Source: Clostridiales bacterium | GTDB taxonomy: Bacteria > Bacillota > Clostridia > Lachnospirales > Lachnospiraceae | Length of the DNA stretch: 64,000 nucleotides | Reading direction: 5' to 3' | Assembly (NCBI GenBank): GCA_018376135.1 | Contig: JAHABX010000008.1 | Location: 29,793 to 93,792, forward strand | Shown here: positions 1 through 51,771 of the stretch, one piece after another | Layout: each line of letters starts with the position of its first letter | How positions within the stretch are numbered: position 1 is the stretch's first letter | Program-made: the position numbers and the translations under genes | Notes under the pieces: generated by a model | Seen by the model: the letters and a program-made list of their open reading frames with translations, nothing else | What the model was told of the DNA's origin: nothing | The model's database searches: none

Positions 1-1
1 C

Positions 2-29765: not shown

Positions 29766-29876
29766 AGAAAAAGGAATATAATGGATAAAGATTTTATTGT
29801 ACAGATACTTGTCAAGGGTTCAGGGCTTATGTTAGAATTATACAGAATATGAAGAAAATGGGGGGAGGAAACGCAA

Positions 29877-30671
29877 ATGTGCGGTGAATGGACACTGTAT
29901 GTCTGCGGAGCCAGAGGCTCTATGCCGGTACATGGAAGGGAATTTCAGGAATTTGGCGGAGCTACCAGCTGCTTTGTGGTGAAGAAGGGGACCTATGCGT
30001 TGATGGTGGACTGCGGAAGCGGTTTTTATCGGGCACGCGAGATTCTTGCGGAGTGTGTACAGGTAGATATTGTATTGACGCACCTTCATTACGATCACAT
30101 GATCGGACTTCTTGGCTATGGAGTGCTTCCAAAGCGGGCGAAAGTGAATTTCTACAGTACCTTTGACAGATGGTTTGGTTCAGAGACAATAAAGGAATTT
30201 TTCAGGGAGCCGTTCTGGCCGGTTGTGCCGGATATCGGGTCCTGTATTTCGGTGGAGTCGCCGGGAAGCATACAGCTGTCCGGCGGTATTGTGCTGTCTT
30301 TTTTTCCATCGGCACATCCGAATCAGGCAAATGTATGCAGACTTGAGATGGAAAACTTTGTACTCTGCATATCCTTTGACTATGAACATCTTGAAGAGCC
30401 TTCGGCGGCATTTCTGGAAGGCTGTGATCTGCTGATCTATGATGGCATGTATACAAAGGAAGAATATGAGCTTTATAAGGGATGGGGTCATTCCTGCTGG
30501 CAGGAGGGCTGCCGTCTTGCAAGGAAGTATAAGATCAGAAGGCTTCTGATCACGCATCACGGAACGACGCGTACGGACATGCAGCTAAGAGCCATGGAGG
30601 AGGAGGCGCGCCAGCATTTTCCCGGAGCAGCCTTTGCCCGTATGGGTGACCGGCTTGAACTTGTAAGGTGA
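29877..30671 (+). CDS. MBL-fold metallo-hydrolase
   Basis: LTHLHYDH metal-binding motif. RBS GGGGGGAGGAAA. Confidence 0.75.
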   Translation: MCGEWTLYVCGARGSMPVHGREFQEFGGATSCFVVKKGTYALMVDCGSGFYRAREILAECVQVDIVLTHLHYDHMIGLLGYGVLPKRAKVNFYSTFDRWFGSETIKEFFREPFWPVVPDIGSCISVESPGSIQLSGGIVLSFFPSAHPNQANVCRLEMENFVLCISFDYEHLEEPSAAFLEGCDLLIYDGMYTKEEYELYKGWGHSCWQEGCRLARKYKIRRLLITHHGTTRTDMQLRAMEEEARQHFPGAAFARMGDRLELVR

Positions 30672-30734
30672 AAAGAATCATACAGAAGATAAAAGAGAAC
30701 ATTGATACGAGAAAAGATGACGAGGAGAATGAAG

Positions 30735-33365: not shown

Positions 33366-33376
33366 GGAAGAAGAGG

Positions 33377-36741: not shown

Positions 36742-37800
36742 ATGGAAAAAGAGATACAGGAGTTGGACGGACAAAAGAAAAAGTATGTACTGGCAGGGCT
36801 TGTTGCGGTGATTCTTATAGCGGCAGTCGTTATTGCGGTTCTGCTGACGGGGAATGACAGAAGAGATGCGGTTCTTCGGTCACCTACGGGGATTCTGTAC
36901 GGAAGCGACGGGAATCTGTATCTGACGGATCAGGGGGGAAACAGCATCCTGCGCATGGATGAAGGGAACGTGAAACTGATCGCCGGTTATATGCTTCCGG
37001 CGGATATTTATGGAGATGCCATAGGCAGCTACGGGGATGGTACCTGGGATAAAGCGTTTTTTAATGCTCCCTTTGATCTGGAGGAATGGGGCGGAGGTCT
37101 TGCGGTCAGTGATACGGGAAATAACTGTATCCGGCTGGCAGCTTCGGACGGGATTGTCCGCACGCTTGCCGGCACGACAGTACAGGGCTGTCAGAACGGT
37201 ATGGCATATGAGGCAACCTTCTATGAGCCGAAAGGGATAGCGGCAGGTCCGGACGGAAGTCTTTATATTGCGGACAGCGGCAACGGAGTTATCCGCAGAC
37301 TGAGCGAGGACGGGCAGGTAGAGACGGTGGTTGGAGATATGGATACGCCTGTGGGGCTGAGCTGGGATGGCGACGTGCTTTATATTACGGATGCAGGAAC
37401 CAGTCAGATCCTGAAATATGAAAATGGAGAGCTGTCAGTGGTTGCAGGAGCCGCATATACCGATGAAGAGAGATCGCTTTTGGACGGAGATGCACAGAAC
37501 GCAGTCTTCTCGGCACCTCAGGGAATTCTGGCACAGGATGGCATGATCTATGTGGCGGATACCGGATTTTCTGCCATCCGCAGAATAAAGGACGGACAGG
37601 TGGACACCATTTCCATTTTTGAGGGGACAGGCAGCAATCTCTGGCCGGCAGGTCCTACGGGCATGGAAATGAAGGCCGGAAATCTCCTGATCGCAGATCC
37701 TTATTCGGGTGTAATATTTGAGGTTAAGGATCCGGATGAAACGCAGGCTGACGAAAATTATCATGAATTTCAATTAAATTTTTATAAAAAAATATATTGA
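36742..37800 (+). CDS. membrane-anchored NHL-repeat (beta-propeller) protein
   Basis: N-terminal TM, then repeated blades (GNLYLTDQGGNSILRM; LYIADSGNGVIRRL; LYITDAGTSQILKY; IYVADTGFSAIRRI). It starts 1 nt after the cyclase stop. Confidence 0.65.
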   Translation: MEKEIQELDGQKKKYVLAGLVAVILIAAVVIAVLLTGNDRRDAVLRSPTGILYGSDGNLYLTDQGGNSILRMDEGNVKLIAGYMLPADIYGDAIGSYGDGTWDKAFFNAPFDLEEWGGGLAVSDTGNNCIRLAASDGIVRTLAGTTVQGCQNGMAYEATFYEPKGIAAGPDGSLYIADSGNGVIRRLSEDGQVETVVGDMDTPVGLSWDGDVLYITDAGTSQILKYENGELSVVAGAAYTDEERSLLDGDAQNAVFSAPQGILAQDGMIYVADTGFSAIRRIKDGQVDTISIFEGTGSNLWPAGPTGMEMKAGNLLIADPYSGVIFEVKDPDETQADENYHEFQLNFYKKIY

Positions 37801-37835
37801 CAATCAATTCTGTTGGGTGTATGCTTTACGGCGTA

Positions 37836-37985
37836 AAGGCAATGGGGTCTTTAAGAAATCATTCTTAGAGCTTCATTGCCTTTCGTTATACCGGGAAATC
37901 TGATCATCAGGAGCAGAAAATCTTCCCTCGAAGAAGGCAATGGCGTCTTTAATGTTTTTAAACATTAAGGGCGCTTTTATTTTAT
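37836..37985 (+). promoter_or_regulatory. repeat-containing leader / putative transcription attenuator upstream of the amt-glnK fusion
   Basis: Two copies of AAGGCAATGG(G/C)GTCTTTAA at 37837 and 37934. A 10-bp inverted repeat AAAGGCAATG...CATTGCCTTT. A terminator-like hairpin GCGTCTTTAATGTTT...AAACATTAAGGGCGC plus TTTTATTTTAT ends ~30 nt before the RBS. Confidence 0.35.
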
Positions 37986-38017
37986 AGATATTTATGGAAA
38001 TCAAGGAGGAAATTTAT

Positions 38018-39748
38018 ATGGCAGTAGAAATGGTAATCGACACAGTCTGGGTATTTCTTGCAGCAATTCTGGTGTTTTTTATGAATCTGGGTTTTGCTTC
38101 TGTAGAAGCGGGTATGGCCAGATCAAAGAATACGGTAAACATTTTGTCAAAGAACTTTATTGTATTTGCAGTATCTTCTTTGGGATTTATATTACTGGGA
38201 TGGGGCCTGATGTTTGGCGGTGACAATCCGTTCATAGGAACACAGAACTTATTTATTCTCGGAACAGAGGACCATTCTTTTTATGATAATACATTGACTT
38301 CAAATGTACCGTTTTGGGGTAAATTCTTCTTCCAGCTGGTGTTCTGCGGAACGGCTGCAACGATTGTTTCCGGGGCTGTTGCGGAAAGAGTAAAGTATAT
38401 ATCGTTTATTCTTTTTTCCTTTGTACTTACCCTGTTCATTTACCCGATCGTAGGACACTGGGTATGGGGAGGAGGCTGGCTTGCGGATCTTGGATTTGTG
38501 GATTTTGCAGGAGATACCGTAGTACATTCCCTGGGTGGATGGTCAGCCCTGTCCGGAGCAATGATTTTAGGACCCCGTATCGGCAAGTATGGTAAGGACG
38601 GAAAGCCTCGTGCAATTCCGGGACATAATATGTCATTGGCAGTGATTGGTTTATTTGTACTGTGGCTTGGATGGTTCGGCTTTAACCCGGGTTCTACTAT
38701 GAGTTTTCAGAATCCGGCAGATGTGATGTACATTTTGATGACAACCAATACTTCTGCTGTCGCAGCAGTTATTACCTCAACGGCAGCTGCATGGATTTTC
38801 CTCGGGAAACCGGATTTGGGCATGACGATCAACGGATGTCTGGCAGGTCTGGTAGGTATTACCGGAAGCTGTGCATATGTTACGGTAGAAGCCTCTCTTA
38901 TTATAGGTGCTGCTGCAGGTGTTATTGTAGTATTTGCAGTTATGTTTTTTGACCGTATCAAAATCGATGATCCGGTTGGTGCAACAAGTGTACATCTGTG
39001 CTGTGGTGTTTTTGGTACGATTTGTGTCGGGTTGTTTGCAAAAGAAGGTGTTACAACACTTTCAGCAAGAAATGGTCTGTTCTACGGCGGAGGCTTTGAA
39101 CTTCTTGGAGTAGAGCTGATCGGTATTGCAGCTGTTGGTGCTTTTGCATTTATTACGTCTTCTCTTGTATGGCTTGCACTCAAGGCTACGGTTGGAATCA
39201 GAGTATCCGCAGAAGAAGAAATTGCAGGTTTGGATATTGGTGAACATGGAAACATGGCTTATCCTGATTTTGTAATCTCTATGGAGAAATATACAGAGGA
39301 TGCGGAAGCGGTTGTTGCTGATCAGATGGCGGAAGATATGATATCAGAGGCGGCTCCTGTGAAGAGCGAATCTGAAAGAGCAGAAAGTGCTCATAAGTTC
39401 AGCAAAGTACAGATTATCTGTAAGGAAGCCAGACTGGAAGCCTTAAAGAAATCTATGAATGAGCTTGGAATTACAGGTATGACGGTATCTCATGTGGTTG
39501 GCTGCGGAGTGCAGAAGGGTAAACCGGAATATTATCGCGGTGCACCTGTAGAGACCAATCTCCTTCCGAAGGTACAGGTTGATATGGTTGTAAGTAAGGT
39601 GCCTGTAAGGAAGGTGATCGAAACTGCCAAGAAGGTACTTTATACCGGACACATCGGAGACGGTAAGATATTCGTGTATGATGTGGAAAATGTCATAAAG
39701 GTGCGTACCGGTGAAGAGGGATATGACGCCCTGCAGGATGTGGAATAA
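38018..39748 (+). CDS. amt: ammonium transporter (Amt) fused to a C-terminal PII nitrogen-regulatory (GlnK/GlnB) domain
   Basis: Amt/MEP 11-TM core (FMNLGFASVEAG..., C-terminal EEEIAGLDIGEHGNMAYPDF). A ~45-aa acidic linker. A complete PII domain (GITGMTV, T-loop GVQKGKPEYYRGAP, GDGKIFV, KVRTGEEG). It is a single uninterrupted 576-aa frame. Confidence 0.85.
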   Translation: MAVEMVIDTVWVFLAAILVFFMNLGFASVEAGMARSKNTVNILSKNFIVFAVSSLGFILLGWGLMFGGDNPFIGTQNLFILGTEDHSFYDNTLTSNVPFWGKFFFQLVFCGTAATIVSGAVAERVKYISFILFSFVLTLFIYPIVGHWVWGGGWLADLGFVDFAGDTVVHSLGGWSALSGAMILGPRIGKYGKDGKPRAIPGHNMSLAVIGLFVLWLGWFGFNPGSTMSFQNPADVMYILMTTNTSAVAAVITSTAAAWIFLGKPDLGMTINGCLAGLVGITGSCAYVTVEASLIIGAAAGVIVVFAVMFFDRIKIDDPVGATSVHLCCGVFGTICVGLFAKEGVTTLSARNGLFYGGGFELLGVELIGIAAVGAFAFITSSLVWLALKATVGIRVSAEEEIAGLDIGEHGNMAYPDFVISMEKYTEDAEAVVADQMAEDMISEAAPVKSESERAESAHKFSKVQIICKEARLEALKKSMNELGITGMTVSHVVGCGVQKGKPEYYRGAPVETNLLPKVQVDMVVSKVPVRKVIETAKKVLYTGHIGDGKIFVYDVENVIKVRTGEEGYDALQDVE

Positions 39749-39799
39749 TGAAACGGGCATGTCTGCTGATGCAGACATCACCTCCGTGTATAATAACCC

Positions 39800-39836
39800 T
39801 GAGAGGATTTTTCAGTCCTCTTGGGGCTGTTTTTTT
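39800..39836 (+). terminator. rho-independent terminator after the amt-glnK fusion
   Basis: GAGGATTTTTCAGTCCTC followed by TTGGGGCTGTTTTTTT. A second hairpin lies at 39757-39780. Confidence 0.55.
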
Positions 39837-39899
39837 GCCGGTCATAGGACAATCTGCCCGGATAATAGATATATAAGGAAGAAATCCGGGGAGCAGGAC

Positions 39900-40172
39900 A
39901 TGACAGAGCTGACAAAGGAAATACTTGATGAAATGGCTGCGGTGGATATCCGGGATGTGGATATGAACAGGCTGACTGATTTCAGGGATATTGTGATCGA
40001 TACCAAAAAGCCTGTTCCGGAAAAGCTCCGGTCTTTTGCGGAGCAGTCGGGCAATGTCTATATACACCGGATGGGGGATTATATTGTCAAGGTACGTTTT
40101 CAGGAGAACGGTCCCGGTATTGATGACAAGATGGAGGAATATTTAAGACGGCTTGCAGAAATTCATATTTAG
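39900..40172 (+). CDS. small hypothetical protein at the element's left end (90 aa)
   Basis: M64 of the tracked ORF follows GGGGAGCAGG. Charged and soluble. It lies immediately upstream of the first recombinase. Confidence 0.4.
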   Translation: MTELTKEILDEMAAVDIRDVDMNRLTDFRDIVIDTKKPVPEKLRSFAEQSGNVYIHRMGDYIVKVRFQENGPGIDDKMEEYLRRLAEIHI

Positions 40173-40192
40173 AAAGGTCAGGAGTGATACAC

Positions 40193-41875
40193 ATGAAAGA
40201 TACACATTTTCTGGCTGCCATGTACCTCCGTCTTTCAAGGGATGACAAGGATATGGGGAATATGGCGGGCAGGGACGGTCCCATGAAAACCGAGAGCAGC
40301 AGCATCGGAAGTCAGAGAGAACTCATCAGAACCTTCATCAGGGAGCAGCCGGACATAGAGCTTTACGACATCTATGTGGATGACGGTTTTTCAGGGAGCA
40401 ATTTCGACAGACCAGAATTTAAGAGAATGATTAGTGACATTGAAGCAGGCAGGGTAAACTGCGTGATCGTAAAAGATCTGTCCCGCTTCGGACGCGATTA
40501 TATTGAAGCCGGGAGGTACCTTCAAAAAATCTTCCCGGACTTGGGTGTGCGTTTTATTGCACTTACGGACCACTATGACAGCATCCGTGCAGATACAGGA
40601 GAAAGCTCCATTGTTCTTCCTGTTAAAAATTTTATCAACGATTCCTATTGTCGGGATATTTCAACAAAGGTAAAGAGCCAGCTTGAGGTAAAACGAAAAA
40701 ACGGAGAGTGTATTGCTCCGTTTGCTGTGTACGGATACCGGAAAAGCGGGGCGGATCACAACAGGCTTGTCGTTGACGAATACGCAGCGGAAAATGTGCG
40801 GAAGATTTTTGCATGGAAGATAGAGGGCGTTGCAGTCTCGGAGATTGCAGATACCTTAAACCGTCTGGGAATTCTGTCGCCAAAGGAGTATAAAAAATCA
40901 CTGGGACTTCATTACAACGGAGGATTTTCCGGTACGGGGACAGCTCTCTGGAGCAGTGCCTCTGTCAGGAGAATTCTGACCAATGAAGTATATCTGGGAC
41001 ATCTGGTGCAGGGCAAAACGGAAAAGGTAAATTATAAGGTAAGGAAAAATACAGAGAAACCAAAAGAGGAATGGATAAAGGTTGAAAATACCCATGAACC
41101 GGTTGTACCGGAGGATGATTTCCTGATCGTACAGAATCTTTTGAAAGCAGACGGACGTAAAAGCCCGGAAACGGGAACTGTCAGTCCGTTTGCGGGACTT
41201 TTGTTCTGCGGGGATTGTGGGGAGCAGATGGTAAGGAGGAGAAACCGTTATAAGGATACGGTGAAGGTCTACTATATCTGTTCCACAAAAAACCGGGGAG
41301 ACGGCTGCAGCAGACACAGTATTGAGGAACAGACATTAAAGGGTATTGTGACGGAAAGTGTGAGGCATTATGTAAATACCTTCTTGGAAGAAAAACAGTT
41401 TTTTGAGAGATCCGTGCAGCTTAAAACAAATTTTAAGTCGGTATTTCTCTATGAGCAGGAAATCAAAAGGCTGAAAAAGGAACAGGAAAAATATGAAAAG
41501 CTCTGCTCCGGGCTGTATAAGGATCTGAGCAGAGGCATTATTTCCAATGAGGAATTTGAACGCCTGCACGGCGGCTTTTGGCAGAAGGCAGAGAAACTGG
41601 AAGAAGCACTGAAAAAGCAGAAGCAGTTTATTCAGGAAATGTGCAGAAAAGGAGTGCTTTCCGCCGGGCGGCTGAAGATATTTCAGGACTGTGCGGAGGT
41701 CAGAGACATAGACCGCCGTTCCCTGTGCAGTCTGGTAAAGAGGATAGAGATCTATGAAGACCGGCAGATAGAGATAGAATTTTACTTTTCAGACAGTTAC
41801 CGGGCAATGCAGGCTGGAAATCAGAGAATCAGGATGGACAGATCCAGACTGTGTGCAGTGGAGAGGAGTGCATAA
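40193..41875 (+). CDS. large serine recombinase (resolvase/invertase N-domain + recombinase + zinc-ribbon/coiled-coil)
   Basis: Catalytic-Ser region AAMYLRLSRDD, VIVKDLSRFGRDY. C-terminal Cys cluster (CGDCGEQ...C..C) and coiled coil. 560 aa. Confidence 0.85.
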   Translation: MKDTHFLAAMYLRLSRDDKDMGNMAGRDGPMKTESSSIGSQRELIRTFIREQPDIELYDIYVDDGFSGSNFDRPEFKRMISDIEAGRVNCVIVKDLSRFGRDYIEAGRYLQKIFPDLGVRFIALTDHYDSIRADTGESSIVLPVKNFINDSYCRDISTKVKSQLEVKRKNGECIAPFAVYGYRKSGADHNRLVVDEYAAENVRKIFAWKIEGVAVSEIADTLNRLGILSPKEYKKSLGLHYNGGFSGTGTALWSSASVRRILTNEVYLGHLVQGKTEKVNYKVRKNTEKPKEEWIKVENTHEPVVPEDDFLIVQNLLKADGRKSPETGTVSPFAGLLFCGDCGEQMVRRRNRYKDTVKVYYICSTKNRGDGCSRHSIEEQTLKGIVTESVRHYVNTFLEEKQFFERSVQLKTNFKSVFLYEQEIKRLKKEQEKYEKLCSGLYKDLSRGIISNEEFERLHGGFWQKAEKLEEALKKQKQFIQEMCRKGVLSAGRLKIFQDCAEVRDIDRRSLCSLVKRIEIYEDRQIEIEFYFSDSYRAMQAGNQRIRMDRSRLCAVERSA

Positions 41876-41876
41876 G

Positions 41877-42881
41877 GTGGCAAGAATATCCAAGCGGTTG
41901 GCGGCACAGAAGAATGTGCAGAAAACCGTGCAGAAGATACGGTACAAAGCAGGCATTTATGCGAGGCTTTCCTCCGATCAGGACACAGAAAAAAATGAAT
42001 CTGTGAATGTGCAGACTGCCATTGCAGAAAAATATGTGGAGGACTGGAACCGGAAACATACAGAACAGATCACGGTAGCGGACCGTTATATAGATTTGGG
42101 AAAGACCGGCAGCAATTTTAACCGTGACGAATTTCAGAGGCTGATGCAGGATATCCGGCTTGGAATCATCAACTGTGTCATAGTCAAGGATCTTTCCCGT
42201 TTTGGCAGGAATTATCTGGAGGTCGGGAATTATATAGAGAAAATTTTCCCGTTCTTAGGTGTGCGTTTCATAGCGGTAACGGACGGACTGGACACCGGAG
42301 ACAGAGGAGGCGGCACAGAGCAGCGGTCAGCCGCTATGGCAATGGAGATCAAAAATCTTGTCAATGATATGTATGCAAAGGACTTTTCCGTAAAAGCGAA
42401 GCAGAATCTGAAACAGAGGAGAGAGGCAGGCTCTTATGTGGGCGGACCGCCGCCGTATGGCTATCTTACAGGCCGGGAGGGAAAAATACGGGTACTGCTG
42501 CCCGATGAAAATACTGCAGAGCTGGTAAGGTATATGTTTGAGCGTTTTATTCAGTCAGAAAGCTTTGCCGCTGTTGCCGATGATCTGAACAGCAGGAAGA
42601 TCAATCCACCTGCTGTTTATAAGAAAACAGGCGAAGTATTCTGGAGCGCTGATATGGGATTGTACAGGGGATGGGATAAGGGTGCCGTAGAACGGATCAT
42701 AAAAAGCAGGACGTATACCGGAATGCTGGTTCAGGGAAAGACCTCCGTCACGGCGAGAGACGAAAGCAATCGTATCCATAATCCGGAAGAAGACTGGGTG
42801 ATAACAGAAAATGCACATGAGCCTCTTATTGGGATGGAAGTTTTCAGGCAGGCAGAGCAGATATACAGGAAGGAGCGGTAG
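41877..42881 (+). CDS. serine recombinase (shorter; lacks the long C-terminal extension)
   Basis: AGIYARLSSDQD, VIVKDLSRFGRNY. A GTG start follows GGAGAGGAG. 334 aa. Confidence 0.75.
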   Translation: MARISKRLAAQKNVQKTVQKIRYKAGIYARLSSDQDTEKNESVNVQTAIAEKYVEDWNRKHTEQITVADRYIDLGKTGSNFNRDEFQRLMQDIRLGIINCVIVKDLSRFGRNYLEVGNYIEKIFPFLGVRFIAVTDGLDTGDRGGGTEQRSAAMAMEIKNLVNDMYAKDFSVKAKQNLKQRREAGSYVGGPPPYGYLTGREGKIRVLLPDENTAELVRYMFERFIQSESFAAVADDLNSRKINPPAVYKKTGEVFWSADMGLYRGWDKGAVERIIKSRTYTGMLVQGKTSVTARDESNRIHNPEEDWVITENAHEPLIGMEVFRQAEQIYRKER

Positions 42882-42884
42882 GGC

Positions 42885-44456
42885 ATGGATAAGATTGCCA
42901 TATATCTCCGTCTTTCCTCAGAGGATTCGGAGGATAAGGATGAGAGCGGCAGTATCAGCAGCCAGCGTGATTTGATTATGGACTACATACAGCAGGATTC
43001 CGGGCTTTTGGCAATGGAGATTGCAGAGTTTTGTGATGACGGCTGTTCAGGAACCAGTATGGACAGACCGGGTATGGAGAAGCTTTTAAAGGAGGTGAAA
43101 GAAAACCGGATCAAGTGTGTGATCGTCAAGGATATGTCCCGCTTTTCCAGAGATTATATTGAACTTGGAACTTATATGAACCGGATATTCCCTTTTATGG
43201 GTATTCGTTTCATCGCCATTAATGACCATTATGACAGTAAAGAGCAAAAGGGCAGTACCATAGAGATTGATACTGCATTTCAGACCTTATTGTATGATCT
43301 GTACAGCAAGGATGTGTCTGTTAAGGTAAAAGCTGCTTTTGAAAATAAGTGTGTAAATGGGGAGTATGTATGCGGACAGGTTCCTTTTGGCTATGAGAAA
43401 AGCCGGGAGAAGAAAAATGCAGTAGTAGTCAGTGAAAAAGAAGCAGAGGTTGTCCGTTACATTTTTGCCCTTGCCCTTGAGGGAAACGGAAGTACGCAGA
43501 TAGCGAGGATCCTGAACGGAAAACAGATTCCAACCAGAATGCAGATGCGTTTCCCGGGGAGAGCAGAAAAGAGCGGGCGGATACCGGCGTGGAGCAGTAC
43601 TTCCGTCAGGGATATTCTGAATAACCGTTTTTATCTTGGGGAAATGGCATACGGCAAGAGCAGAAGGCGGCATGTGGGCAGCAAAAACGGCATTGCGATC
43701 CCAAAGGATCAGTGGAAGGTGATAGAGAATCATCACGAACCGCTGATCACGCCGGAGGTTTATAAAAAGGTGTGCAGCTTTGGCGCAGAGCGTTCCACGA
43801 AACGAAAGAGAGAAAAGAATGCGTTGGTGGGAAAGCTCTTCTGCGGCGGCTGCGGGTATTCCATGAGTTATAAGCCTCTTCGGGAAAAGAATAAGTACCG
43901 CAGGTTTGAATGCCGGAAACACGCTGTATTGCAGATATCCGGGTGCTGTACCTGTTTTTCTGCCGATCTGTTGGAGGAAATGGTGACTGCCATGCTGCAC
44001 ATAGAGCTGCTGCTGCGCGGCAGTGCCGTAAGGCAGAAGGAAGGTCTTGTATCCTTTCGGAAGTCCTGCATGAAGAGACTGGAAAGGAAAGCGGCAGACT
44101 GCCGGTACAGACAGAAACAGCTGCAGGCAGAAAAGGATGACCTGTATGAGCGCTATGCACTGGGTGAGGTAAGCCTGATCGCATACAAAGCACAGGCAGA
44201 CAGCCTGACAGAGCAGATTTCGCGCTTTTCGGCTGATGAGGATGGATTTCGGTCAGAGCTTGCGGCTGTTCAGGAGGAATACCGTAAAACAGAAGAAGAT
44301 ATGAAGCAGATCATACGATATGCCCATCTGGAGACACTGACGCAGGAGATGGTTGATACATTTGTCAAAAAGATTCATGTTTATAAGAACAGGAAAGTGG
44401 AAATTGAATGGAGCTTCAGCGATGACAGGGGGCAGAGTCCGGCTGATCTGACCTGA
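42885..44456 (+). CDS. large serine recombinase
   Basis: IAIYLRLSSEDSED, VIVKDMSRFSRDY. C-terminal Cys-rich zinc ribbon (CGGCGY...C..C) and coiled coil. RBS GGAAGGAG. Confidence 0.85.
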   Translation: MDKIAIYLRLSSEDSEDKDESGSISSQRDLIMDYIQQDSGLLAMEIAEFCDDGCSGTSMDRPGMEKLLKEVKENRIKCVIVKDMSRFSRDYIELGTYMNRIFPFMGIRFIAINDHYDSKEQKGSTIEIDTAFQTLLYDLYSKDVSVKVKAAFENKCVNGEYVCGQVPFGYEKSREKKNAVVVSEKEAEVVRYIFALALEGNGSTQIARILNGKQIPTRMQMRFPGRAEKSGRIPAWSSTSVRDILNNRFYLGEMAYGKSRRRHVGSKNGIAIPKDQWKVIENHHEPLITPEVYKKVCSFGAERSTKRKREKNALVGKLFCGGCGYSMSYKPLREKNKYRRFECRKHAVLQISGCCTCFSADLLEEMVTAMLHIELLLRGSAVRQKEGLVSFRKSCMKRLERKAADCRYRQKQLQAEKDDLYERYALGEVSLIAYKAQADSLTEQISRFSADEDGFRSELAAVQEEYRKTEEDMKQIIRYAHLETLTQEMVDTFVKKIHVYKNRKVEIEWSFSDDRGQSPADLT

Positions 44457-44660
44457 CACTAACTTGCCATAAGCGGGGTATGGTCTTTTGGATCTGTATG
44501 GCAGCTTTCAGGCAATGAGAGGATTTCCCGGTGCCCGATAAAGAATTCACATTTTTTTCAAACATTTTCTAAAGTTCATTTTAGGTTTCCTGTGTATGCT
44601 GTAAAAGCAGAGAGGGAGAGTCCCGTATCTGAAAAATGACAGAGAAGCCGGAGGAAAGAT

Positions 44661-46220
44661 GTGAAGAAAATAGTGAACAGGAAAATCATGCTGCCGATAG
44701 CGGCAGTTCTTACTCTGCTGACAGGCTGCCTTGCATTCTATGTGCACAGCCGCCAGCAGGCGAGAGCGGTTATGCAGGAAAATATGAATCAGGTGGAGAC
44801 TGTACAGGTTACGAAACAGAATCTGATCGATTCCATCAGTGTGACCGGAACGATCAAGAGTGCGGACGAGAGAGAGGTCCAGTCCATAGCGAAGGATGTG
44901 GAAGTGCTGGAGGTCCGCTATAAAGTGGGCGATTACGTCAACGAAGGAGATGTGGTCGTGGTGTTGGATTCCAGCGAACTGGAGCGCAGTCTGACGGAGG
45001 CGCAGAACAGCCAGGCGCTGAGCCAGTACAAGGAGAACAAGTCCATCGAGACAGCGACAGAGGATTATAATGAGGCGGTTGAGGACGGAACCGATGAGTA
45101 CCAGTCGGCACAGGAAAAGGCTGCCGATGCAAAGGAAGCATTACAGGAGGCGGAGGATGAGCTGGCCGGAGCGGCTTCCCGTCTGAAACGGCGTGAGGAA
45201 AGCCTGAATGAAGCAAACAGTGCCCAGGAGGCGGCTGCGGCGGTTCTGAACGGACTGGCGGAAACAGATGAAGGCTATAAGGATGCCAAAGACGCTTATG
45301 AGGCAGCAGCTATTGCCGCACAGGAAGCACAGAGTTCTTATACAGAAGCACATCAGGCATATAACACGGCTGCAGAAGCGGAAGAAAAGGCAGTGGAAAC
45401 CTATGAAAGTGCAGTAGACCAGCTGGAGACGGCAGAGAAGAACAATGACCGGAATATTTCCAGTGCAGAGGATAATCTGGAGCAGGTACAAAAAGAGCAT
45501 GAGTATTCCAACGACAGCGGAGAGCAGACCATCGAGAATTATCAGGATCAGATTGAAAGCTGTACGGTGACAGCTCCTGTTTCTGGTATTATCACAGCCA
45601 TGAATGTGGATGCGGGGGATACCTATATGGGAGAAGGCAATGTGCTGTTCAGTGTTGCGGATGAGAAAAACTTTATTGTGTCGGCAAGTGTGGATGAGTA
45701 CGATATCAGCAGCATTGACAAAGACATGGAGGCAGCAGTGATCGTGGAAGCCCTGGGTGATGAGGAGCTTCCGGCTACCGTATCCTTCGTGTCACCATCC
45801 GCTGATGAGTCCAATATGGGAAGCTCTTCTTATTCCATAGAGATTGCTCTGGATGATGAGAATACGGATCTGCGTATCGGCATGACTGCAAAAGCCAGCA
45901 TTATCCTGAACGCAGTCTATGACGTACTGACCGTACCCTATGACTGCGTGGAGACCGATGAGGACGGTAATTCTGTGCTCTATATAGACAAGGATGGGGA
46001 GAAGACTCCGGTCCAGGTAGAAGTAGGTATGGAGAGCGATTATTATGTGGAGGTATCAGGAGAAGGACTGGATGAAACTACCATGATCTATTATACGAAT
46101 CCTATGACCCAAAGCAATGGTACGTCAGGGAATGATGAAAGCACTATGACGGTGACAATGCCTGGTATGATGGGCGGAGGAGCTCCCTCCGGCGGCGGAC
46201 GTCCCGGCGGTGGATTCTAG
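44661..46220 (+). CDS. HlyD/MacA-family membrane-fusion (periplasmic adaptor) protein
   Basis: GTG start after GGAGGAAAG. N-terminal TM. A very long Ala/Glu-rich coiled coil. A beta-barrel/lipoyl-like C-terminal region. Gly-rich tail. Confidence 0.7.
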   Translation: MKKIVNRKIMLPIAAVLTLLTGCLAFYVHSRQQARAVMQENMNQVETVQVTKQNLIDSISVTGTIKSADEREVQSIAKDVEVLEVRYKVGDYVNEGDVVVVLDSSELERSLTEAQNSQALSQYKENKSIETATEDYNEAVEDGTDEYQSAQEKAADAKEALQEAEDELAGAASRLKRREESLNEANSAQEAAAAVLNGLAETDEGYKDAKDAYEAAAIAAQEAQSSYTEAHQAYNTAAEAEEKAVETYESAVDQLETAEKNNDRNISSAEDNLEQVQKEHEYSNDSGEQTIENYQDQIESCTVTAPVSGIITAMNVDAGDTYMGEGNVLFSVADEKNFIVSASVDEYDISSIDKDMEAAVIVEALGDEELPATVSFVSPSADESNMGSSSYSIEIALDDENTDLRIGMTAKASIILNAVYDVLTVPYDCVETDEDGNSVLYIDKDGEKTPVQVEVGMESDYYVEVSGEGLDETTMIYYTNPMTQSNGTSGNDESTMTVTMPGMMGGGAPSGGGRPGGGF

Positions 46221-46229
46221 GAGGCGTAT

Positions 46230-46943
46230 ATGAAGACAGAAACAGGTAAAACGATCATTGACCTTAACGGGATTATAAAACGCTTCTATATTGGAGAACC
46301 CAATGAGCTGGAGATTCTGCATGGGATCGATCTTCGGGTGCAGGAAGGGGAATTTGTCTCCATTGTAGGAGAATCCGGTTCGGGAAAGACAACCATGATG
46401 AATATCATCGGAATTCTGGACCGTCCCACTGAAGGAGGATATATTCTTGACGGTGTGGATGTGGCCAGGGCAAAGGATAAGGAGCTGTCACAGATCCGAA
46501 ATCAGAAGATCGGCTTTGTATTTCAGACCTACAATCTGATCAGCCGCACCAGTGCGCTGAAAAATGTGGAGCTTCCCATGCTCTACAGTGGAATTGGAAA
46601 AAGAGAACGACAGGAAAGAGCCAGAGAGCTTCTGGAAATGGTAGGGATGGGAGGACGCATCAGCCACAATCCGGATGAGCTGTCGGGAGGTCAGAAGCAG
46701 AGGGTGGCAATTGCACGTGCCATGGCAAATGACCCCTCCATCATTCTCGCGGATGAACCTACCGGAGCGCTGGACTCCAAAACCGGGCGGAAGATCATGG
46801 ATATCTTTCACAGACTGAATCATGAGCAGGGAAAGACGATCGTACTGATCACTCACTCCCAGGAGCTTGCGGAGGAGACGGAGCGGATCGTGACACTGAA
46901 GGATGGTCAGATCATCGGAGAAAGGAGCGGAAGCGGATGCTGA
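46230..46943 (+). CDS. ABC transporter ATP-binding protein (MacB/LolD-like)
   Basis: Walker A (GESGSGKTT), ABC signature (LSGGQKQR), Walker B (ILADEPTGALD). Confidence 0.9.
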   Translation: MKTETGKTIIDLNGIIKRFYIGEPNELEILHGIDLRVQEGEFVSIVGESGSGKTTMMNIIGILDRPTEGGYILDGVDVARAKDKELSQIRNQKIGFVFQTYNLISRTSALKNVELPMLYSGIGKRERQERARELLEMVGMGGRISHNPDELSGGQKQRVAIARAMANDPSIILADEPTGALDSKTGRKIMDIFHRLNHEQGKTIVLITHSQELAEETERIVTLKDGQIIGERSGSGC

Positions 46944-48229
46944 TTATGGAAAATATTCTGCTGGCGCTGAACGGGCTGCGTGCCAATAAGATGCGTTCCC
47001 TTTTGACCATGCTTGGAATCATCATCGGCATTGCGTCTGTGATCGCCATAATGACCCTGGGAGATTCGATCAGCAGCTCAGTGACTACGACGATGTCTTC
47101 CATGGGAGCCAATAATGTGACGGTCGGTCTTCAGCAGAAAAGCACCACAGAGGAGACGACGCAGAGCGGCATGACCTTCTCCATGGGTCCCCGTATGACC
47201 CAGATGTCAGAAGAGGATTATGTGACGGAGGACATGATCGCGGATCTTGGAGAGCGCTATGAGGACCGTATTCTTGGTTTTTCTCTTGCGGAAAGCATCG
47301 GAAGCGGAACTGCCCAGAAGGGGGATCTGTATGCCTATGTGAATGCAGTGGGCGGGAATACAGACAATATTGAGAATGAAGAGCTTACGATCCTTGCGGG
47401 AAGGACGTTCAGTGACCGGGATCAGAGTGAGGGCAGGAAGGTAGTTCTGGTATCTGATCTTCTGGTTGATAATATGTTTGAAGGAGACAACATGCAGGCG
47501 ATAGGCCAGACCATAGATGTGTTGTTTTCGGACCGGTATTATACGTATACCATTGTAGGTGTTTACGAATATGAAGAGTCTGCAGGTTCGTTTTCCAGCA
47601 GTTCTTCTGAGGATACAGAGACGACTCTTTATATGCCGCTTCTGGCAGCCCGGAATCAGACCCATAATACTTCCGGATACAGTCAGTTCACGATCCTGAG
47701 CGCAAGTGGTGTGGATGCAGAGGAGTTCTGTACAGAAATAGAGAACTATATGAACGCCCGTTATTACGGGAATAATGAAAGCTTTGAGATCGGAGCCATG
47801 AGTATGTCCTCCGTAATTGAAAGCATGACGGAAATGCTGTCCACCATATCGCTGGCGATTGCGGCAATTGCAGCCATATCTCTTCTGGTAGGCGGAATTG
47901 GCGTCATGAATATTATGCTGGTATCCATTACGGAACGGACCAGAGAGATCGGTACGAGAAAGGCACTGGGAGCTACCAACGGTTCCATCCGGCTGCAGTT
48001 CATTATGGAAGCGATCGTACTGTGCGTACTGGGCGGTGTGATCGGAATCCTGCTGGGCATCGGCATAGCGGCGGTGGCAACGGATATGATGGGATATTCT
48101 GTCAGCCCGTCGGTTACCGGAATCGTGCTCTCTGTCAGCTTTTCTGTTTTCATCGGAGTGTTCTTCGGATATTACCCGGCAAACAAAGCGGCAAAGCTGA
48201 ATCCTATAGAGGCGCTCCGGTATGAATAA
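46937..48229 (+). CDS. ABC transporter permease, FtsX/MacB-like (4 TM plus a large extracytoplasmic domain)
   Basis: N-terminal TM, ~250-aa external domain, three C-terminal TM segments with an FtsX-like motif. Overlaps the ATPase gene by 7 nt. Confidence 0.85.
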   Translation: MLIMENILLALNGLRANKMRSLLTMLGIIIGIASVIAIMTLGDSISSSVTTTMSSMGANNVTVGLQQKSTTEETTQSGMTFSMGPRMTQMSEEDYVTEDMIADLGERYEDRILGFSLAESIGSGTAQKGDLYAYVNAVGGNTDNIENEELTILAGRTFSDRDQSEGRKVVLVSDLLVDNMFEGDNMQAIGQTIDVLFSDRYYTYTIVGVYEYEESAGSFSSSSSEDTETTLYMPLLAARNQTHNTSGYSQFTILSASGVDAEEFCTEIENYMNARYYGNNESFEIGAMSMSSVIESMTEMLSTISLAIAAIAAISLLVGGIGVMNIMLVSITERTREIGTRKALGATNGSIRLQFIMEAIVLCVLGGVIGILLGIGIAAVATDMMGYSVSPSVTGIVLSVSFSVFIGVFFGYYPANKAAKLNPIEALRYE

Positions 48230-48299
48230 AAAATAGAGATACCATACGGGATGAAAATCTGTTAATATAGAGAACAGAAAAGGACAGGAGGAAGCAGGT

Positions 48300-48971
48300 A
48301 TGAAGCTGTTGCTGGCAGAGGATGAAAGATCCCTTTCAAGGGCACTGACTGCAATTCTGGAGAAGAATCATTATTCCGTGGATGCGGTATATGACGGACA
48401 GACAGCGCTGGAGTATCTGACGCTGGGAGGATATGACGGTGCGGTGCTGGATATTATGATGCCGAAGATGGACGGGATCACGGTCCTTAAAAAGGTGCGG
48501 AGTATGGGGAATTATATCCCCATACTGATGCTTACGGCAAAGTCGGAGGTCGATGATAAGGTGGAGGGGCTGGACAGCGGTGCAAATGACTATCTGACCA
48601 AGCCTTTTCATACAAGCGAGCTGCTTGCCAGGATACGTGCCATGACACGTGTACAGACTCAGCCGGATACCCGTCTGAGAATGGGCAATCTTGTGCTGGA
48701 TCAGGCAAGCTTTGAGCTTTCTTCTGAGACGGGCAGCTTCCGTCTGGCCAAAAAAGAGTTCCTGATGATGGAGATTTTGATGTCCAATCCCAACCGCCTG
48801 ATTTCCACAGAGCAGTTTATGGAGAAAATATGGAGCTTTGAGAGCGATGTGGGGATTCAGGTAGTCTGGGTCTATATTTCTTATCTGAGGAAAAAGCTGG
48901 CGGCGCTTCATGCAGATGTGCAGATCGTGGTTGCGAGAAATGCAGGATATATGCTGAAGGAGGCCAGATGA
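48300..48971 (+). CDS. OmpR-family response regulator
   Basis: Receiver domain (Asp in LLAEDE and DIMMPKMDG) and a winged-helix DNA-binding domain. Confidence 0.9.
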   Translation: MKLLLAEDERSLSRALTAILEKNHYSVDAVYDGQTALEYLTLGGYDGAVLDIMMPKMDGITVLKKVRSMGNYIPILMLTAKSEVDDKVEGLDSGANDYLTKPFHTSELLARIRAMTRVQTQPDTRLRMGNLVLDQASFELSSETGSFRLAKKEFLMMEILMSNPNRLISTEQFMEKIWSFESDVGIQVVWVYISYLRKKLAALHADVQIVVARNAGYMLKEAR

Positions 48972-50212
48972 TACGAAAGCTTCGTAAAAGATTTATTTTG
49001 CTGACAGTCGGCTCTCTTTTTCTGGTGCTGGCGGTGACGATGGGAATCGCCAATCTGCTGAATTATAAAAATATAGTCAGCAGGGCAGATGCCCTGCTTT
49101 CCGTGCTGACGGAAAATAACGGCTCCTTCCCTGCGATAGTGCTGCCTGCAGTTCCTGTGGAGGGGGAAGCAGAGGAAGAATTTGACCATCGGAGATTTTC
49201 TCCGGAGACGCCGTTTGAGTCCCGGTTCTTCTATGCTTTTCTCAATGAAGACGGGGAACTGACCACCAGCAATACCGGAAGGATCGCCGCCATTGATACA
49301 GACACGGCGATGGAGTATGCAAGACAGGTATGGGAAGGGGAAAGCTCCCGTGGTTTTATGAAGCAGTACCGCTATATGAAAGCTCCTTCAGAGGAGGGAA
49401 CGCTGATCGTATTTCTGGACTGCAGCAGGGATCTTCAGGCAGTGCACAATTTTATGAGAAATGGATTTGGAGTGGCTGTTCTGATTCTTCTGGCAGTATT
49501 TCTGCTGGTCTATCTCCTGTCCGGCCGTATGGTGAAGCCGGTCCTGGAGGGATATGAGAAGCAGAAGCAGTTCATCACCGATGCAGGTCATGAGCTGAAA
49601 ACGCCCCTTGCGATCATTGATGCGGACACGGATGTGCTGGAAATGGAGATCGGGGAGAATGAATGGCTGGAGGATATCCGCAGACAGACCGGGAGACTGG
49701 CAGTTCTGACCCGGGATCTGATCTATCTTGCAAGGATGGAAGAGGAGGATTCGCATCTTCAGATGGTGGATCTGCCCTTTTCGGATATTGTGGAGGAGAC
49801 GGCGCAGTCCTTTCAGTCGCTTGCGGTTGCCCAGCAGAAGAGCTTTATAGTTCAGATCCAGCCCATGCTCATGGTGCACGGAGATGAAAAGGCGCTGCGG
49901 CAGCTGATATCTATTCTGCTGGACAATGCGCTGAAATATTCCGGAGACAGCGGAAATATTCGCCTGAGGCTGGAAAAGCAGGGGAAGAGCGTGAAGCTGT
50001 CGGTATCTAATACAACGGAAGAACCGATAGAAAAGGAAAGTCTGTCTCATCTTTTTGACCGGTTTTACAGGGGGGACAAGTCCCGTAATTCCGACAAGAG
50101 CGGATACGGAATCGGACTTTCCATCGCAAAAGCGGTGGTGGAATCCCACAAAGGAGAGATCTGTGCATCCACAGCAGACGGGCATTCTCTGATGATCACA
50201 GCAGTTCTGTAA
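48968..50212 (+). CDS. sensor histidine kinase
   Basis: Two TM segments flanking an extracytoplasmic loop. H-box (AGHELKTPLA). N, G1 and G2 boxes (LLDNALKYS, GYGIGLSIAK). Overlaps the response-regulator gene by 4 nt. Confidence 0.85.
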   Translation: MIRKLRKRFILLTVGSLFLVLAVTMGIANLLNYKNIVSRADALLSVLTENNGSFPAIVLPAVPVEGEAEEEFDHRRFSPETPFESRFFYAFLNEDGELTTSNTGRIAAIDTDTAMEYARQVWEGESSRGFMKQYRYMKAPSEEGTLIVFLDCSRDLQAVHNFMRNGFGVAVLILLAVFLLVYLLSGRMVKPVLEGYEKQKQFITDAGHELKTPLAIIDADTDVLEMEIGENEWLEDIRRQTGRLAVLTRDLIYLARMEEEDSHLQMVDLPFSDIVEETAQSFQSLAVAQQKSFIVQIQPMLMVHGDEKALRQLISILLDNALKYSGDSGNIRLRLEKQGKSVKLSVSNTTEEPIEKESLSHLFDRFYRGDKSRNSDKSGYGIGLSIAKAVVESHKGEICASTADGHSLMITAVL

Positions 50213-50221
50213 CAGAGGAGG

Positions 50222-50270
50222 CAGTCGGTATGAACCGGCTGCCTCCCCTGTTATATGCGCCTTTTTTCAT
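50222..50270 (+). terminator. rho-independent terminator after the histidine kinase (right element boundary region)
   Basis: GGAGGCAGTCGG-tatgaa-CCGGCTGCCTCC followed by CCTTTTTT. Confidence 0.55.
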
Positions 50271-50293
50271 GTGTGCGCCGTCTAAAGATATCA

Positions 50294-50321
50294 TTGACAT
50301 CCATAAGAAACGTGCTAAAAT
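50294..50321 (+). promoter_or_regulatory. near-consensus sigma-A promoter
   Basis: TTGACA, a 16-nt spacer, then TAAAAT. It drives the Re-citrate-synthase-like gene. Confidence 0.55.
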
Positions 50322-50367
50322 GTATACAAAATGGATTGTATACGATGATACAAATGAGGAGAGCATT

Positions 50368-51771
50368 ATGGATAAAAACAGAGCGGTTCATTTTGACCGG
50401 CATACCAACCTGCTGCAGCTGGAAGAGCATATGTATCCCCTGGTAGATGTGGAGCATCCGAATACGTTCAGGAATCTGTTTCCTTATACAGAGGTTCCGA
50501 AGATCGCATTCAACGACCGGATCGTACCCCATCATATGCCGGAGGAGATATGGATCACAGATACGACCTTCCGGGACGGGCAGCAGTCCAGAGCACCCTA
50601 TTCCACAGAGCAGATCGTGAAGATCTATGATTATTTCCATAAGCTGGGCGGGCATAAGGGACTGATCCGTCAGTCTGAATTTTTCCTGTACAGCAAGAAG
50701 GACAGGGATGCAGTATATAAGTGTATGGAGAAGGGCTATAAGTTCCCGGAGGTGACCAGCTGGATCCGTGCCAACAAGGATGATTTCCAGCTTGTCAAGG
50801 AACTGGGCATGAAGGAGACCGGGATACTGGTAAGCTGTTCTGATTACCATATTTTCTATAAGATGAAGATGAGCAGACGGGAAGCCATGCAGCACTATCT
50901 GAATATTGTGCGCGAGTGTCTGGAGATCGGGATCAGCCCCAGATGCCATCTGGAGGATATTACCAGAGCCGATATTTACGGCTATGTGATTCCGTTCTGT
51001 CTGGAACTGAAGAACATGATGGATTATTACAATATTCCCATTAAGGTGCGCTGCTGCGATACCATGGGTTATGGTGTAAACTATCCGGGTGCAGTGATTC
51101 CCCGGTCTGTGCCGGGCATCATCTACGGTATTCAGGTGCATGCGGGCTTTTCCTCTGATCTGATCGAGTGGCACGGGCACAATGATTTCTATAAAGCAGT
51201 CAGCAATTCCACGACTGCATGGCTGTACGGGGCTTCCGGTGTGAACTGTTCTCTGTTCGGAATCGGAGAGCGTACCGGCAATACGCCGCTGGAGGCGATG
51301 GTATTTGAGTATGCACAGCTCAGGGGAACGCTGGACGGCATGGACACGACCGTTATCACAGAGCTGGCAGAATATTATGAGAAGGAGATCGGCTATCATA
51401 TTCCTTCCAGAACTCCTTTTGTGGGCAGGAATTTCAATGTGACCAGAGCAGGCATCCATGCGGACGGTCTTTTGAAGAATGAAGAGATCTATAATATTTT
51501 TGATACAGGCAAATTCCTGAATCGTCCGGCACTGGTGTCTGTATCCAATACGTCCGGACTGGCGGGGATCGCACACTGGATCAATACGTATTTCCAGCTG
51601 AAGGATCATCATATGGTGGACAAGAACTCAGAGCTGGTGCATATGGTGAAGGCATGGGTGGATCAGGAGTATGAGAGCGGACGGGTGACTGTTCTGACGG
51701 ACGAGGAGCTTCTGAAGGTGATTCATGAGGCATGTGAGAAGACAGGAGTACAGATCGTACAGGAGGCATAG
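50368..51771 (+). CDS. LeuA/NifV-family (DRE-TIM) acyltransferase, likely Re-citrate synthase
   Basis: ITDTTFRDGQQ, HGHNDF, and the LeuA/homocitrate-synthase-family GIGERTGNTPLE motif. The start at M47 of the tracked ORF has RBS GAGGAGAG. It is clustered with a GntR regulator and icd, as in Clostridium kluyveri Re-citrate synthase. Confidence 0.55.
   Translation: MDKNRAVHFDRHTNLLQLEEHMYPLVDVEHPNTFRNLFPYTEVPKIAFNDRIVPHHMPEEIWITDTTFRDGQQSRAPYSTEQIVKIYDYFHKLGGHKGLIRQSEFFLYSKKDRDAVYKCMEKGYKFPEVTSWIRANKDDFQLVKELGMKETGILVSCSDYHIFYKMKMSRREAMQHYLNIVRECLEIGISPRCHLEDITRADIYGYVIPFCLELKNMMDYYNIPIKVRCCDTMGYGVNYPGAVIPRSVPGIIYGIQVHAGFSSDLIEWHGHNDFYKAVSNSTTAWLYGASGVNCSLFGIGERTGNTPLEAMVFEYAQLRGTLDGMDTTVITELAEYYEKEIGYHIPSRTPFVGRNFNVTRAGIHADGLLKNEEIYNIFDTGKFLNRPALVSVSNTSGLAGIAHWINTYFQLKDHHMVDKNSELVHMVKAWVDQEYESGRVTVLTDEELLKVIHEACEKTGVQIVQEA

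Follow-up and report, generated by a model that had tools for sequence, protein, structure and literature searches.

Three adjacent genes for large serine recombinases raise the question of which DNA they belong to and which gene that DNA interrupted. The genes lie in a 64,000-nucleotide stretch of contig JAHABX010000008.1 from a Clostridiales bacterium (referred to here as the window, with positions counted from its first nucleotide). An initial annotation had proposed that they form part of a single 10.4-kb element at 39,850-50,285, inserted between the gene for an ammonium transporter-P-II fusion (amt-PII) and a citrate-synthase-like gene. Having analyzed the window by open reading frame (ORF) listing and Pfam scans, we consider it very likely that the inserted unit is instead a 14.8-kb element at 29,684-44,477. 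This element sits in the 3' end of csp, a germination-protease gene, carries the recombinase triplet at its right end and amt-PII as cargo, and leaves the adjoining ATP-binding cassette (ABC) transporter and two-component genes outside. The data thus support an integrated mobile element that includes three large serine recombinases in tandem, and they redraw its borders: the junctions fall at 29,682/83 and 44,476/77, and DNA homology to related elements covers only ∼39,840-44,477 of the unit originally proposed.

The split csp gene and its junctions

The two parts of csp bracket the element (Table 1). The 5' part accounts for about 539 of the 560 residues of the restored protein, within a mechanically called ORF of 27,960-29,765, and it contains the catalytic D, H and S motifs, with the Pfam S8 match falling in two stretches. 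A phmmer search with the interrupted ORF covered 1.84 billion representatives; among its 150 best hits, nearly all lost alignment at query residues 540-546, and the subject proteins of these matches run 10 to 20 residues past the end of the alignment. Intact homologues end in ...[W/C/T]G[Y/F]GxL[D/N]...; the interrupted ORF reads ...FEFPNRFWG/AYGIIVSCKSG... up to its stop codon (the slash marks the junction), and its substitute C terminus had no aligned counterpart in any intact homologue retrieved. The native tail was found 14.8 kb away from the 5' part, where positions 44,473-44,541 translate to AGYGLLDLYGSFQAMRGFPGAR followed by a stop codon. Joining the two flanks gives a 560-aa Csp which ends in ...NRFWGYGLLDLYGSFQAMRGFPGAR-stop and aligns without gaps to intact homologues such as P0362 (...WGFGLLDLYGSFQALRGIRESS).

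The solved CspA, CspB and CspC germination proteases matched the restored protein, in its first reconstruction, at E values of 1e-59 to 8e-65 over residues 79-556, 6 residues short of its end, a similarity that takes in the central insertion. The best NCBIfam models were those of CspC and CspBA, at 255-264 bits and below the equivalog cut-offs. Judged by its sequence, the target is therefore a member of the Csp family and not an orthologue of the Clostridioides difficile proteins.

At the nucleotide level, attL reads TTTTGG-GG-GGCTTATGGAATTATAGTGTCATG and attR reads CCTGACACTAACTTGCCATAAGCG-GG-GTATGGTC, the P arm of the latter overlapping the stop codon of recombinase 3. The P arm complements the P' arm at 18 of 24 positions, and the two form a 24-nt imperfect inverted repeat. 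(A separate inverted-repeat search returned arms at 29,685-29,708 and 44,451-44,474, a pair that taken alone was no better than chance pairs of similar length.) The two junctions share a GG within a run of G residues. We favor this GG as the crossover dinucleotide because the consensus WGYG is then recovered without gaps and attP becomes symmetric around a nonpalindromic core. It defines an element of 14,794 bp, a reconstructed attP of CCTGACACTAACTTGCCATAAGCG-GG-GGCTTATGGAATTATAGTGTCATG and a reconstructed attB within csp of ...CCCAACCGCTTTTGG-GG-GTATGGTCTTTTGG...; the corresponding synthetic junctions are predicted to be GAATTTCCCAACCGCTTTTGGGGGTATGGTCTTTTGGATCTGTATGG for attB and CTGACACTAACTTGCCATAAGCGGGGGCTTATGGAATTATAGTGTCATG for attP. 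Two other placements were considered and rejected. Placed at a GC dinucleotide, the crossover yields a perfect CCATAAGCTTATGG palindrome, but it implies a palindromic core and two extra residues (WGAGYG) that no intact homologue has; placed in the shared TATGG, it yields WGAYG, which upsets the conserved WGYG motif.

We propose that a nonconjugative integrative element would have entered csp close to its 3' end, at the codons for Trp-Gly-Tyr-Gly, by site-specific recombination of the large-serine-recombinase type, presumably catalyzed by the recombinases that it carries. Such an integration would place the operon of the DUF6870 gene and the triplet at the right extremity, with the P arm reaching into the third recombinase gene, and the DNA between both junctions would be passenger DNA, namely, a five-gene cluster and amt-PII. 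The insertion exchanges the last 21 codons of csp for 27 element-encoded codons, and an attL × attR recombination that excised the element would give back the native 560-aa protein without change.

Table 1. Features of the element inserted in csp and of its surroundings, in window coordinates
Feature	Position	Strand	Basis
csp 5' part, Csp-family subtilisin-like germination protease	28,065-29,683	+	Pfam Peptidase_S8
attL: B arm 29,658-29,681, GG core 29,682-29,683, P' arm 29,684-29,707 (GGCTTATGGAATTATAGTGTCATG)	29,658-29,707	+	sequence
Element-encoded substitute C terminus of csp ORF (...WG/AYGIIVSCKSGCCGVSDDKESKNKCI-stop)	29,684-29,765	+	translation
Promoter-like site TTGTCA-18-TAGAAT with TG, ahead of cargo cluster	29,809-29,838	+	consensus scan, pattern match only
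Metallo-beta-lactamase (MBL)-fold metallo-hydrolase, 264 aa	29,877-30,671	+	precomputed Pfam Lactamase_B / Lactamase_B_2 for identical gene
887-aa protein, faint Glug-repeat match	30,702-33,365	+	precomputed Pfam
FecR-domain-like protein, 526 aa	33,356-34,936	+	Pfam FecR, E 4e-6
CHASE2 sensor + class III adenylate/guanylate cyclase fusion, 611 aa	34,906-36,741	+	Pfam CHASE2 2e-43, Guanylate_cyc 4e-28
NHL-repeat protein, 352 aa	36,742-37,800	+	Pfam NHL / TEN_NHL
Ammonium transporter-P-II fusion (amt-PII), 584 aa	37,994-39,748	+	Pfam Ammonium_transp 1.6e-120, P-II 1e-23; terminator 39,797-39,836
Conserved leader (GTCATAGGACAATCTGCC...), left edge of integration module	39,840-39,899	+	blastn limits and four-way alignment
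DUF6870 protein, 90 aa	39,900-40,172	+	Pfam PF21757, 4e-22
Recombinase 1 (internal), full-length, 560 aa	40,193-41,875	+	Pfam Resolvase + Recombinase + Zn ribbon
Recombinase 2 (middle), 334 aa from GTG start	41,877-42,881	+	Pfam Resolvase + Recombinase only
Recombinase 3 (external, adjoining attR), full-length, 523 aa	42,885-44,456	+	Pfam Resolvase + Recombinase + Zn ribbon + DUF4368
attR: P arm 44,452-44,475, GG core 44,476-44,477, B' arm 44,478-44,501	44,452-44,501	+	sequence
csp 3' remnant, last 21 codons; with GG core, G-YGLLDLYGSFQAMRGFPGAR-stop	44,478-44,541	+	translation, tblastn
HlyD/YknX-like adaptor, ABC ATPase, MacB/FtsX permease, OmpR-type regulator, histidine kinase	together 44,661-50,212	+	Pfam

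The integration module and the right end of the element

The right end was defined with relatives whose recombinases are 70 to 86% identical to those of the window. In every one of them, the DUF6870 gene and the triplet stand at the right end of the element, with its body upstream of the triplet, and element DNA ends ∼20 nt past the third recombinase gene. The 70%-identical relative is a single element for which 10 kb of upstream DNA is identical and is followed by five different gene neighborhoods, which diverge right after ...TTGACATACGCGGG (...GTGACATTAACTTGACATACGCGGG). Since the 10 kb upstream is constant while the neighborhoods to the right vary, the triplet must be the right-hand terminus, with the body upstream of the DUF6870 gene; the element thus runs left to 29,684 and not, as originally proposed, right to 50,285.

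Pattern scans of a viral collection added one more attR with a csp tail; the attL-pattern matches obtained from the same collection were unrelated. Altogether, ten different flanks follow the end motif GACAYYAACTTRNCAT-A(A/C)GCG-GG, comprising that of the window, three from the 85%-identical group, five from the 70%-identical group and one from a viral-collection contig. All ten read (A)G[Y/F]G... and reach a stop codon within 13 to 21 codons, which is the C-terminal tail of Csp, entered at the same starting codons each time. The csp gene is therefore the target throughout this family of right ends.

A csp tail was also recognized in the closest host relative found (L111), whose citrate-synthase-like protein (HMGL family) is 94% identical and stands in the same gene order, HMGL-GntR-icd-SpoIVA. 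Its right flank holds ∼54 residues of an S8 peptidase C terminus (...WGFGLLDLYGSFRSIRGIRESS-stop) that match the 3' part of the window's S8 ORF at 27,960-29,765; the stop codon of this csp tail runs into the −35 box of the HMGL gene, so that the tail abuts the HMGL promoter. A different recombinase triplet lies directly upstream of the HMGL gene in L111 (positions 1-4,565; also in L112 and L113). This second triplet is distantly related to that of the window (66 to 73% nucleotide identity in patches) and interrupts the orthologous csp ∼40 codons further upstream, at the codons E-W/G-I-V and in a TGGGG run. As a TGGGG run is present at both sites, Trp-Gly codons of one and the same gene serve as insertion points for two lineages. 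Three other citrate-synthase relatives (85 to 86% identical) lie in different neighborhoods without csp upstream.

The module itself had largely been described correctly. Pfam bears out three adjacent recombinase genes of 560, 334 and 523 aa on the plus strand, each with its own catalytic-serine N-terminal domain (PF00239 in all three), and the translations place the nucleophilic serine in the contexts YLRLS, YARLS and YLRLS (Y-x-R-x-S) in recombinases 1 to 3. A C-terminal zinc ribbon had been assigned to two of the three, which are recombinases 1 and 3 (PF07508 plus PF13408 in both); recombinase 2 ends after its recombinase domain. The three paralogues are only about 31 to 35% identical to one another, which points to an old triplication. 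Recombinase 1, whose family proved to be very large in the search for relatives, matches a PHROG integrase at 1e-99 over profile positions 90-574 and is 85.5% identical to the copy in the relative L084; for recombinase 3, the corresponding values are 5e-83 and 83%. The NCBIfam matches of these proteins to CcrA/B/C were weak, at 80-104 bits versus cut-offs of 700-900.

Recombinase 2 is a truncated copy of a ∼566-aa protein. Alignment to relatives of 565 to 568 aa showed that ∼240 C-terminal codons are gone, and blastn (window 42,864/42,884 corresponding to L084 12,642/13,365) showed that the ∼720 bp deleted encode the zinc-ribbon, coiled-coil and C-terminal regions; the protein covers the PHROG integrase profile at positions 72-355 of 651 only. 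At the deletion, ∼20 nt of unrelated sequence supply the stop codon and, for recombinase 3, a Shine-Dalgarno-like AGGAAGGAG. Degenerate recombinases had been named in the initial annotation as a sign of an ancient, fixed region, and degeneracy was found in one of the three, the middle one.

The DUF6870 protein, the small upstream ORF noted earlier, is the best conserved of the module's proteins (94% identity to its L084 counterpart versus 83 to 86% for the recombinases), and its gene lies directly 5' of the triplet in every examined relative whose contig reaches that position. Searches with it of PADLOC and PHROG returned zero matches. Its position makes it a candidate directionality factor, which would control the recombination reaction.

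Upstream of the DUF6870 gene, the module starts at 39,840, which a four-way alignment identified as also being the point where the relatives diverge from one another. Against its closest relatives (recombinases 83 to 86% identical), the window gave a blastn match only at ∼39,835-44,470, plus 13 nt past a repeat-bounded deletion. The leader contains AC-N17-GATATATAA, which as a pattern only loosely resembles a sigma-K-type −10 element (CATA---TA). The leader of the relatives also contains an ATTGTC-N8-GACAAT inverted repeat, the left arm of which is missing from the window.

Relatives with 85%-identical recombinases carry, from left to right, variable DNA, helix-turn-helix (HTH) regulators, a sulfatase-maturase-like cluster, a PemK toxin gene, the DUF6870 gene, the triplet (recombinases of 554, 565 to 568 and 523 to 529 aa) and a LacI/sugar-ABC/GH53 locus. 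They share a common right flank. To the left of a shared 14 kb, they hold an ISL3 transposase gene, an ORF like the C-terminal domain of RNA polymerase alpha or an ORF like a carbohydrate-binding module; these differing left parts span positions 1-1,139 in L084, 1-760 in L085 and L090, and 1-236 in L086, the true left ends lying beyond the fetched DNA. By this comparison, the bodies of these elements are mosaic. Relatives also hold extra DNA between recombinase 3 and attR, flanked by two copies of the P-arm motif GACAYYAACTTRNCAT (L102 14,952-15,245; L084 14,953-15,079). The extra segment of L102 includes a 97-aa ORF, starting with MRAAIYARVGNPDQ, which resembles the N terminus of a fourth resolvase in a decayed state, the catalytic Ser being replaced by Gly. 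In the window, the P-arm motif occurs as one fused copy, and the ∼110-nt inter-repeat segment of the relatives is missing.

Cargo, flanking genes and competing readings

Between attL and attR, the MBL-fold, Glug-like, FecR, CHASE2-cyclase and NHL genes form a closely packed five-gene cluster. Its gene content suggests that the cluster (29,877-37,800) could be a self-contained cyclic-nucleotide signaling unit. The cyclase domain matched PADLOC models of PycC (Pycsar) at 2.5e-29, and PADLOC and PHROG scans of the cargo gave only this match and a weak PHROG match of the MBL-fold protein to metal-dependent hydrolases. The MBL-fold protein also gave weak NCBIfam matches to RNase Z and to cyclic-nucleotide phosphodiesterase, and the Glug-like 887-aa protein had no match in NCBIfam or PADLOC. 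No conjugation, mobilization or phage genes were found among the ORFs between attL and attR by Pfam, NCBIfam, PADLOC and PHROG scans.

The last cargo gene, amt-PII, scored above the cut-off of TIGR00836 and is the most atypical gene in composition: its GC content at third codon positions (GC3) is 0.385, versus 0.50-0.63 in every other examined gene (recombinase genes, 0.51-0.54; ABC/two-component genes, 0.55-0.59; housekeeping genes, 0.55-0.63). From this composition, amt-PII probably stems from a lower-GC donor and arrived later than the rest of the island. In a scan of 185,579 species genomes, none of 80 amt-PII relatives (best, 80% amino acid identity) had any other gene of window 27,960-56,000 within 10 kb, with no synteny on either side. 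The initial annotation had seen in amt-PII and the citrate-synthase-like gene a conserved nitrogen locus that an insertion had separated; the two were linked within 10 kb in none of these 80 relatives, amt-PII lies inside the element, and the interrupted target is csp. GC content and skew across the window gave no boundary signal, and a scan for tRNA genes found none in the window.

To the right of the csp remnant follow the HlyD adaptor, ABC ATPase, FtsX permease, OmpR-type regulator and histidine-kinase genes. All of them are present as first described, and they lie outside the element, beyond attR and the csp remnant (44,452-44,541). The terminators and the promoter that had been taken to bracket the proposed unit do exist (hairpins at 39,797-39,826 and 50,217-50,246; TTGACA-16-TAAAAT at 50,294-50,321), but the hairpins are the ordinary terminators of amt-PII and the histidine-kinase gene and not element borders. 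Relative to L111, the ABC/two-component block (44,545-50,293) is an insertion/deletion difference, with homology resuming exactly at 50,294, and its edges are marked by neither a recombinase nor a repeat. A metagenome scan with the HlyD-like protein gave only matches of 25 to 29% identity and one short 39% fragment.

Could the triplet and the ABC/two-component genes nevertheless form a single 10.4-kb element at 39,850-50,285 that has entered between amt-PII and the citrate-synthase-like gene, starts with the recombinases on the left and carries the block as cargo? The genes concerned are all adjacent and codirectional, and the closest relative lacks the block at this position, a genuine insertion/deletion difference. 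However, a conserved element end and the csp 3' remnant separate recombinase 3 from the ABC genes, and in every relative the body lies upstream of the triplet. The permease has homologues of 81 to 82% identity in ordinary chromosomal contexts that lack recombinases and a two-component system, the block matches the host in GC3, with amt-PII as the outlier in composition, and the linkage of amt to citrate synthase is seen in 0 of 80 relatives. We give this reading almost no credence. A dead remnant, in which only the 4.6-kb module (39,840-44,477) would be foreign, as the stump of a larger element, and the upstream genes including amt-PII would be native, is somewhat easier to picture and still very improbable. 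Homology to the relatives begins abruptly at 39,840, 10 nt past the amt-PII terminator, recombinase 2 is truncated, and the upstream DNA lacks typical mobile-element genes. Yet a matching attL, consisting of the P' arm and the csp 5' part, lies at 29,68x, so that the halves of one gene bracket everything in between; the relatives diverge from each other at 39,840 as well, which makes this point a module boundary rather than a deletion scar; and the GC3 of amt-PII is the most atypical in the region. This model was dropped after L111 showed the csp tail and attL emerged.

The third alternative concerns function rather than extent. The element might be a developmentally regulated intervening element of the skin, SP-beta, gin and yin type, excised in the sporulating mother cell, with DUF6870 or another small protein as directionality factor and an intact Csp produced for the spore. 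The interrupted gene encodes a spore-germination protease, the host forms spores (genes for SpoIVA and SpoIID are present in the window), at least two unrelated triplet lineages occupy csp at two positions, with ten independent contexts at the first, and DUF6870 is more conserved than the recombinases. Moreover, the known elements that intervene in sporulation genes all use large serine recombinases, and the nonphage gin in gerE carries three (PMC5595907). Set against this, the insertion lies 21 codons from the stop codon and the substitute tail retains a YG-hydrophobic motif, a pattern typical of target-sparing elements; the relatives resemble ordinary cargo islands with toxin-antitoxin and ParB genes; triplet modules of nonsporulating streptococci likewise disrupt genes that have no developmental role; the sporulation promoter and the directionality factor are candidates only; and recombinase 2 is truncated in this copy. 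On balance, we regard developmental excision as rather unlikely.

Several points also weigh against the 14.8-kb element in csp that we favor. The crossover spot within the G-run was deduced from the symmetry of the arms and the family consensus WG[Y/F]G rather than observed. Left ends (P' arms) were sought in all fetched relatives, and none was found within the 10 kb available, so that attL rests on one element. Same-species genomes yielded no empty site; exact look-ups of amt-PII and recombinases 1 and 3 led to just one other assembly of the organism, which has the same layout. The interior lacks the genes found upstream of the module in the relatives (HTH regulators, PemK toxin, ParB) and may have been remodeled. 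Finally, the middle recombinase is truncated and the segment between the P-arm-like repeats is missing; this copy may be immobile, and it is doubtful that it can still move.

Among the neighboring genes, all from amt-PII to the HMGL-family gene, GntR, icd and SpoIVA, which follow the histidine-kinase gene in this order, are on the plus strand. Within 50,230-50,370, the 513-aa ORF called for the citrate-synthase-like (HMGL-family) gene begins inside the upstream terminator; its true start is likely the ATG at 50,368, preceded by GAGGAG, which gives 467 aa, with homologues of 462 to 469 aa. Between its promoter and its start lies a conserved GTATAC-containing repeat (ATGTATACAAAATGGATTGTATAC) that is also present in L111 and may serve as the operator for the adjacent GntR regulator.

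Relation to known triplets and sporulation-gene elements

Serine-recombinase triplets, gene-targeting islands and elements intervening in sporulation genes are each already known. Streptococcal serine-integrase triplets lie at an element extremity, insert site-specifically inside genes and leave repeats of 2 to 8 bp (Ambroset et al. 2016, PMC4701971). The element described here resembles these modules of integrative and conjugative elements (ICEs) and derived elements in having three adjacent, co-oriented large serine recombinase genes at an extremity next to an att site, in the site-specific disruption of a protein-coding gene with a junction repeat of a few bases (GG here), in the low identity of the paralogues and in the extra ORF that some relatives hold between the triplet and the target (PMC4701971). 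Unlike the streptococcal ICEs, it measures 14.8 kb without a conjugation module and hence is not an ICE. It also differs from the streptococcal modules in its sporulating gut clostridial host, in its target, which is csp rather than mutT, hsdM or traG, in the conserved DUF6870 gene ahead of the triplet and in the truncated middle recombinase of this copy.

Similarities extend to gin in gerE of Bacillus cereus, which is likewise nonphage, has three serine-recombinase genes, lies in the coding region of a sporulation-related gene, has att sites with an imperfect inverted repeat and does not itself carry conjugation genes (Abe et al. 2017, PMC5595907). In gin, however, a girAB operon and a separate girC take the place of a tandem triplet, and only GirC and the small factor GirX are needed; its excision during sporulation was shown experimentally (PMC5595907), whereas for the present element it is hypothetical. 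Furthermore, gin is inserted in the middle of its gene and not at the extreme 3' end. The skin (sigK), SP-beta (spsM) and yin elements, the last of which sits in yabG (PMC10747680), share with the csp element a large serine recombinase adjoining one att site and an interrupted gene of the sporulation program that can be restored by precise excision. They differ in being prophages or prophage remnants with a single recombinase and a dedicated directionality factor, in contrast to the three recombinases, the absence of phage genes and the metabolic and signaling cargo found here. SCCmec, the staphylococcal cassette chromosome (SCC) that carries ccrAB, similarly has more than one large serine recombinase gene in tandem on a nonconjugative, cargo-carrying chromosomal cassette, but it has two such genes and not three, and the Ccr matches of the present proteins fall well short of the family cut-offs. 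The insertion site of SCC is the 3' end of rlmH (orfX). Full-text literature searches for csp as an integration target and for DUF6870 found nothing.

These results assign the ammonium transporter to horizontally acquired cargo rather than to a native nitrogen locus. They remove the ABC/two-component module from the element and identify a spore-germination protease gene as the one actually interrupted. Each of the ten right junctions examined, contributed by several related elements, lies within one set of four csp codons (WG[Y/F]G), and a second triplet lineage has entered 40 codons upstream. With the att sites defined to the GG core within the G-run, it becomes possible to test directly why there are three recombinases and whether excision modulates germination. 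It is a tentative and, in our estimation, rather unlikely idea that elements with DUF6870 and a triplet form a widespread family in gut Clostridia which has csp as its dedicated landing site and acts as gene-intervening switches. If this were true, the germination competence of commensal spores would hinge on a mobile element, and the triplet and DUF6870 would share the tasks of integration, excision and directionality.

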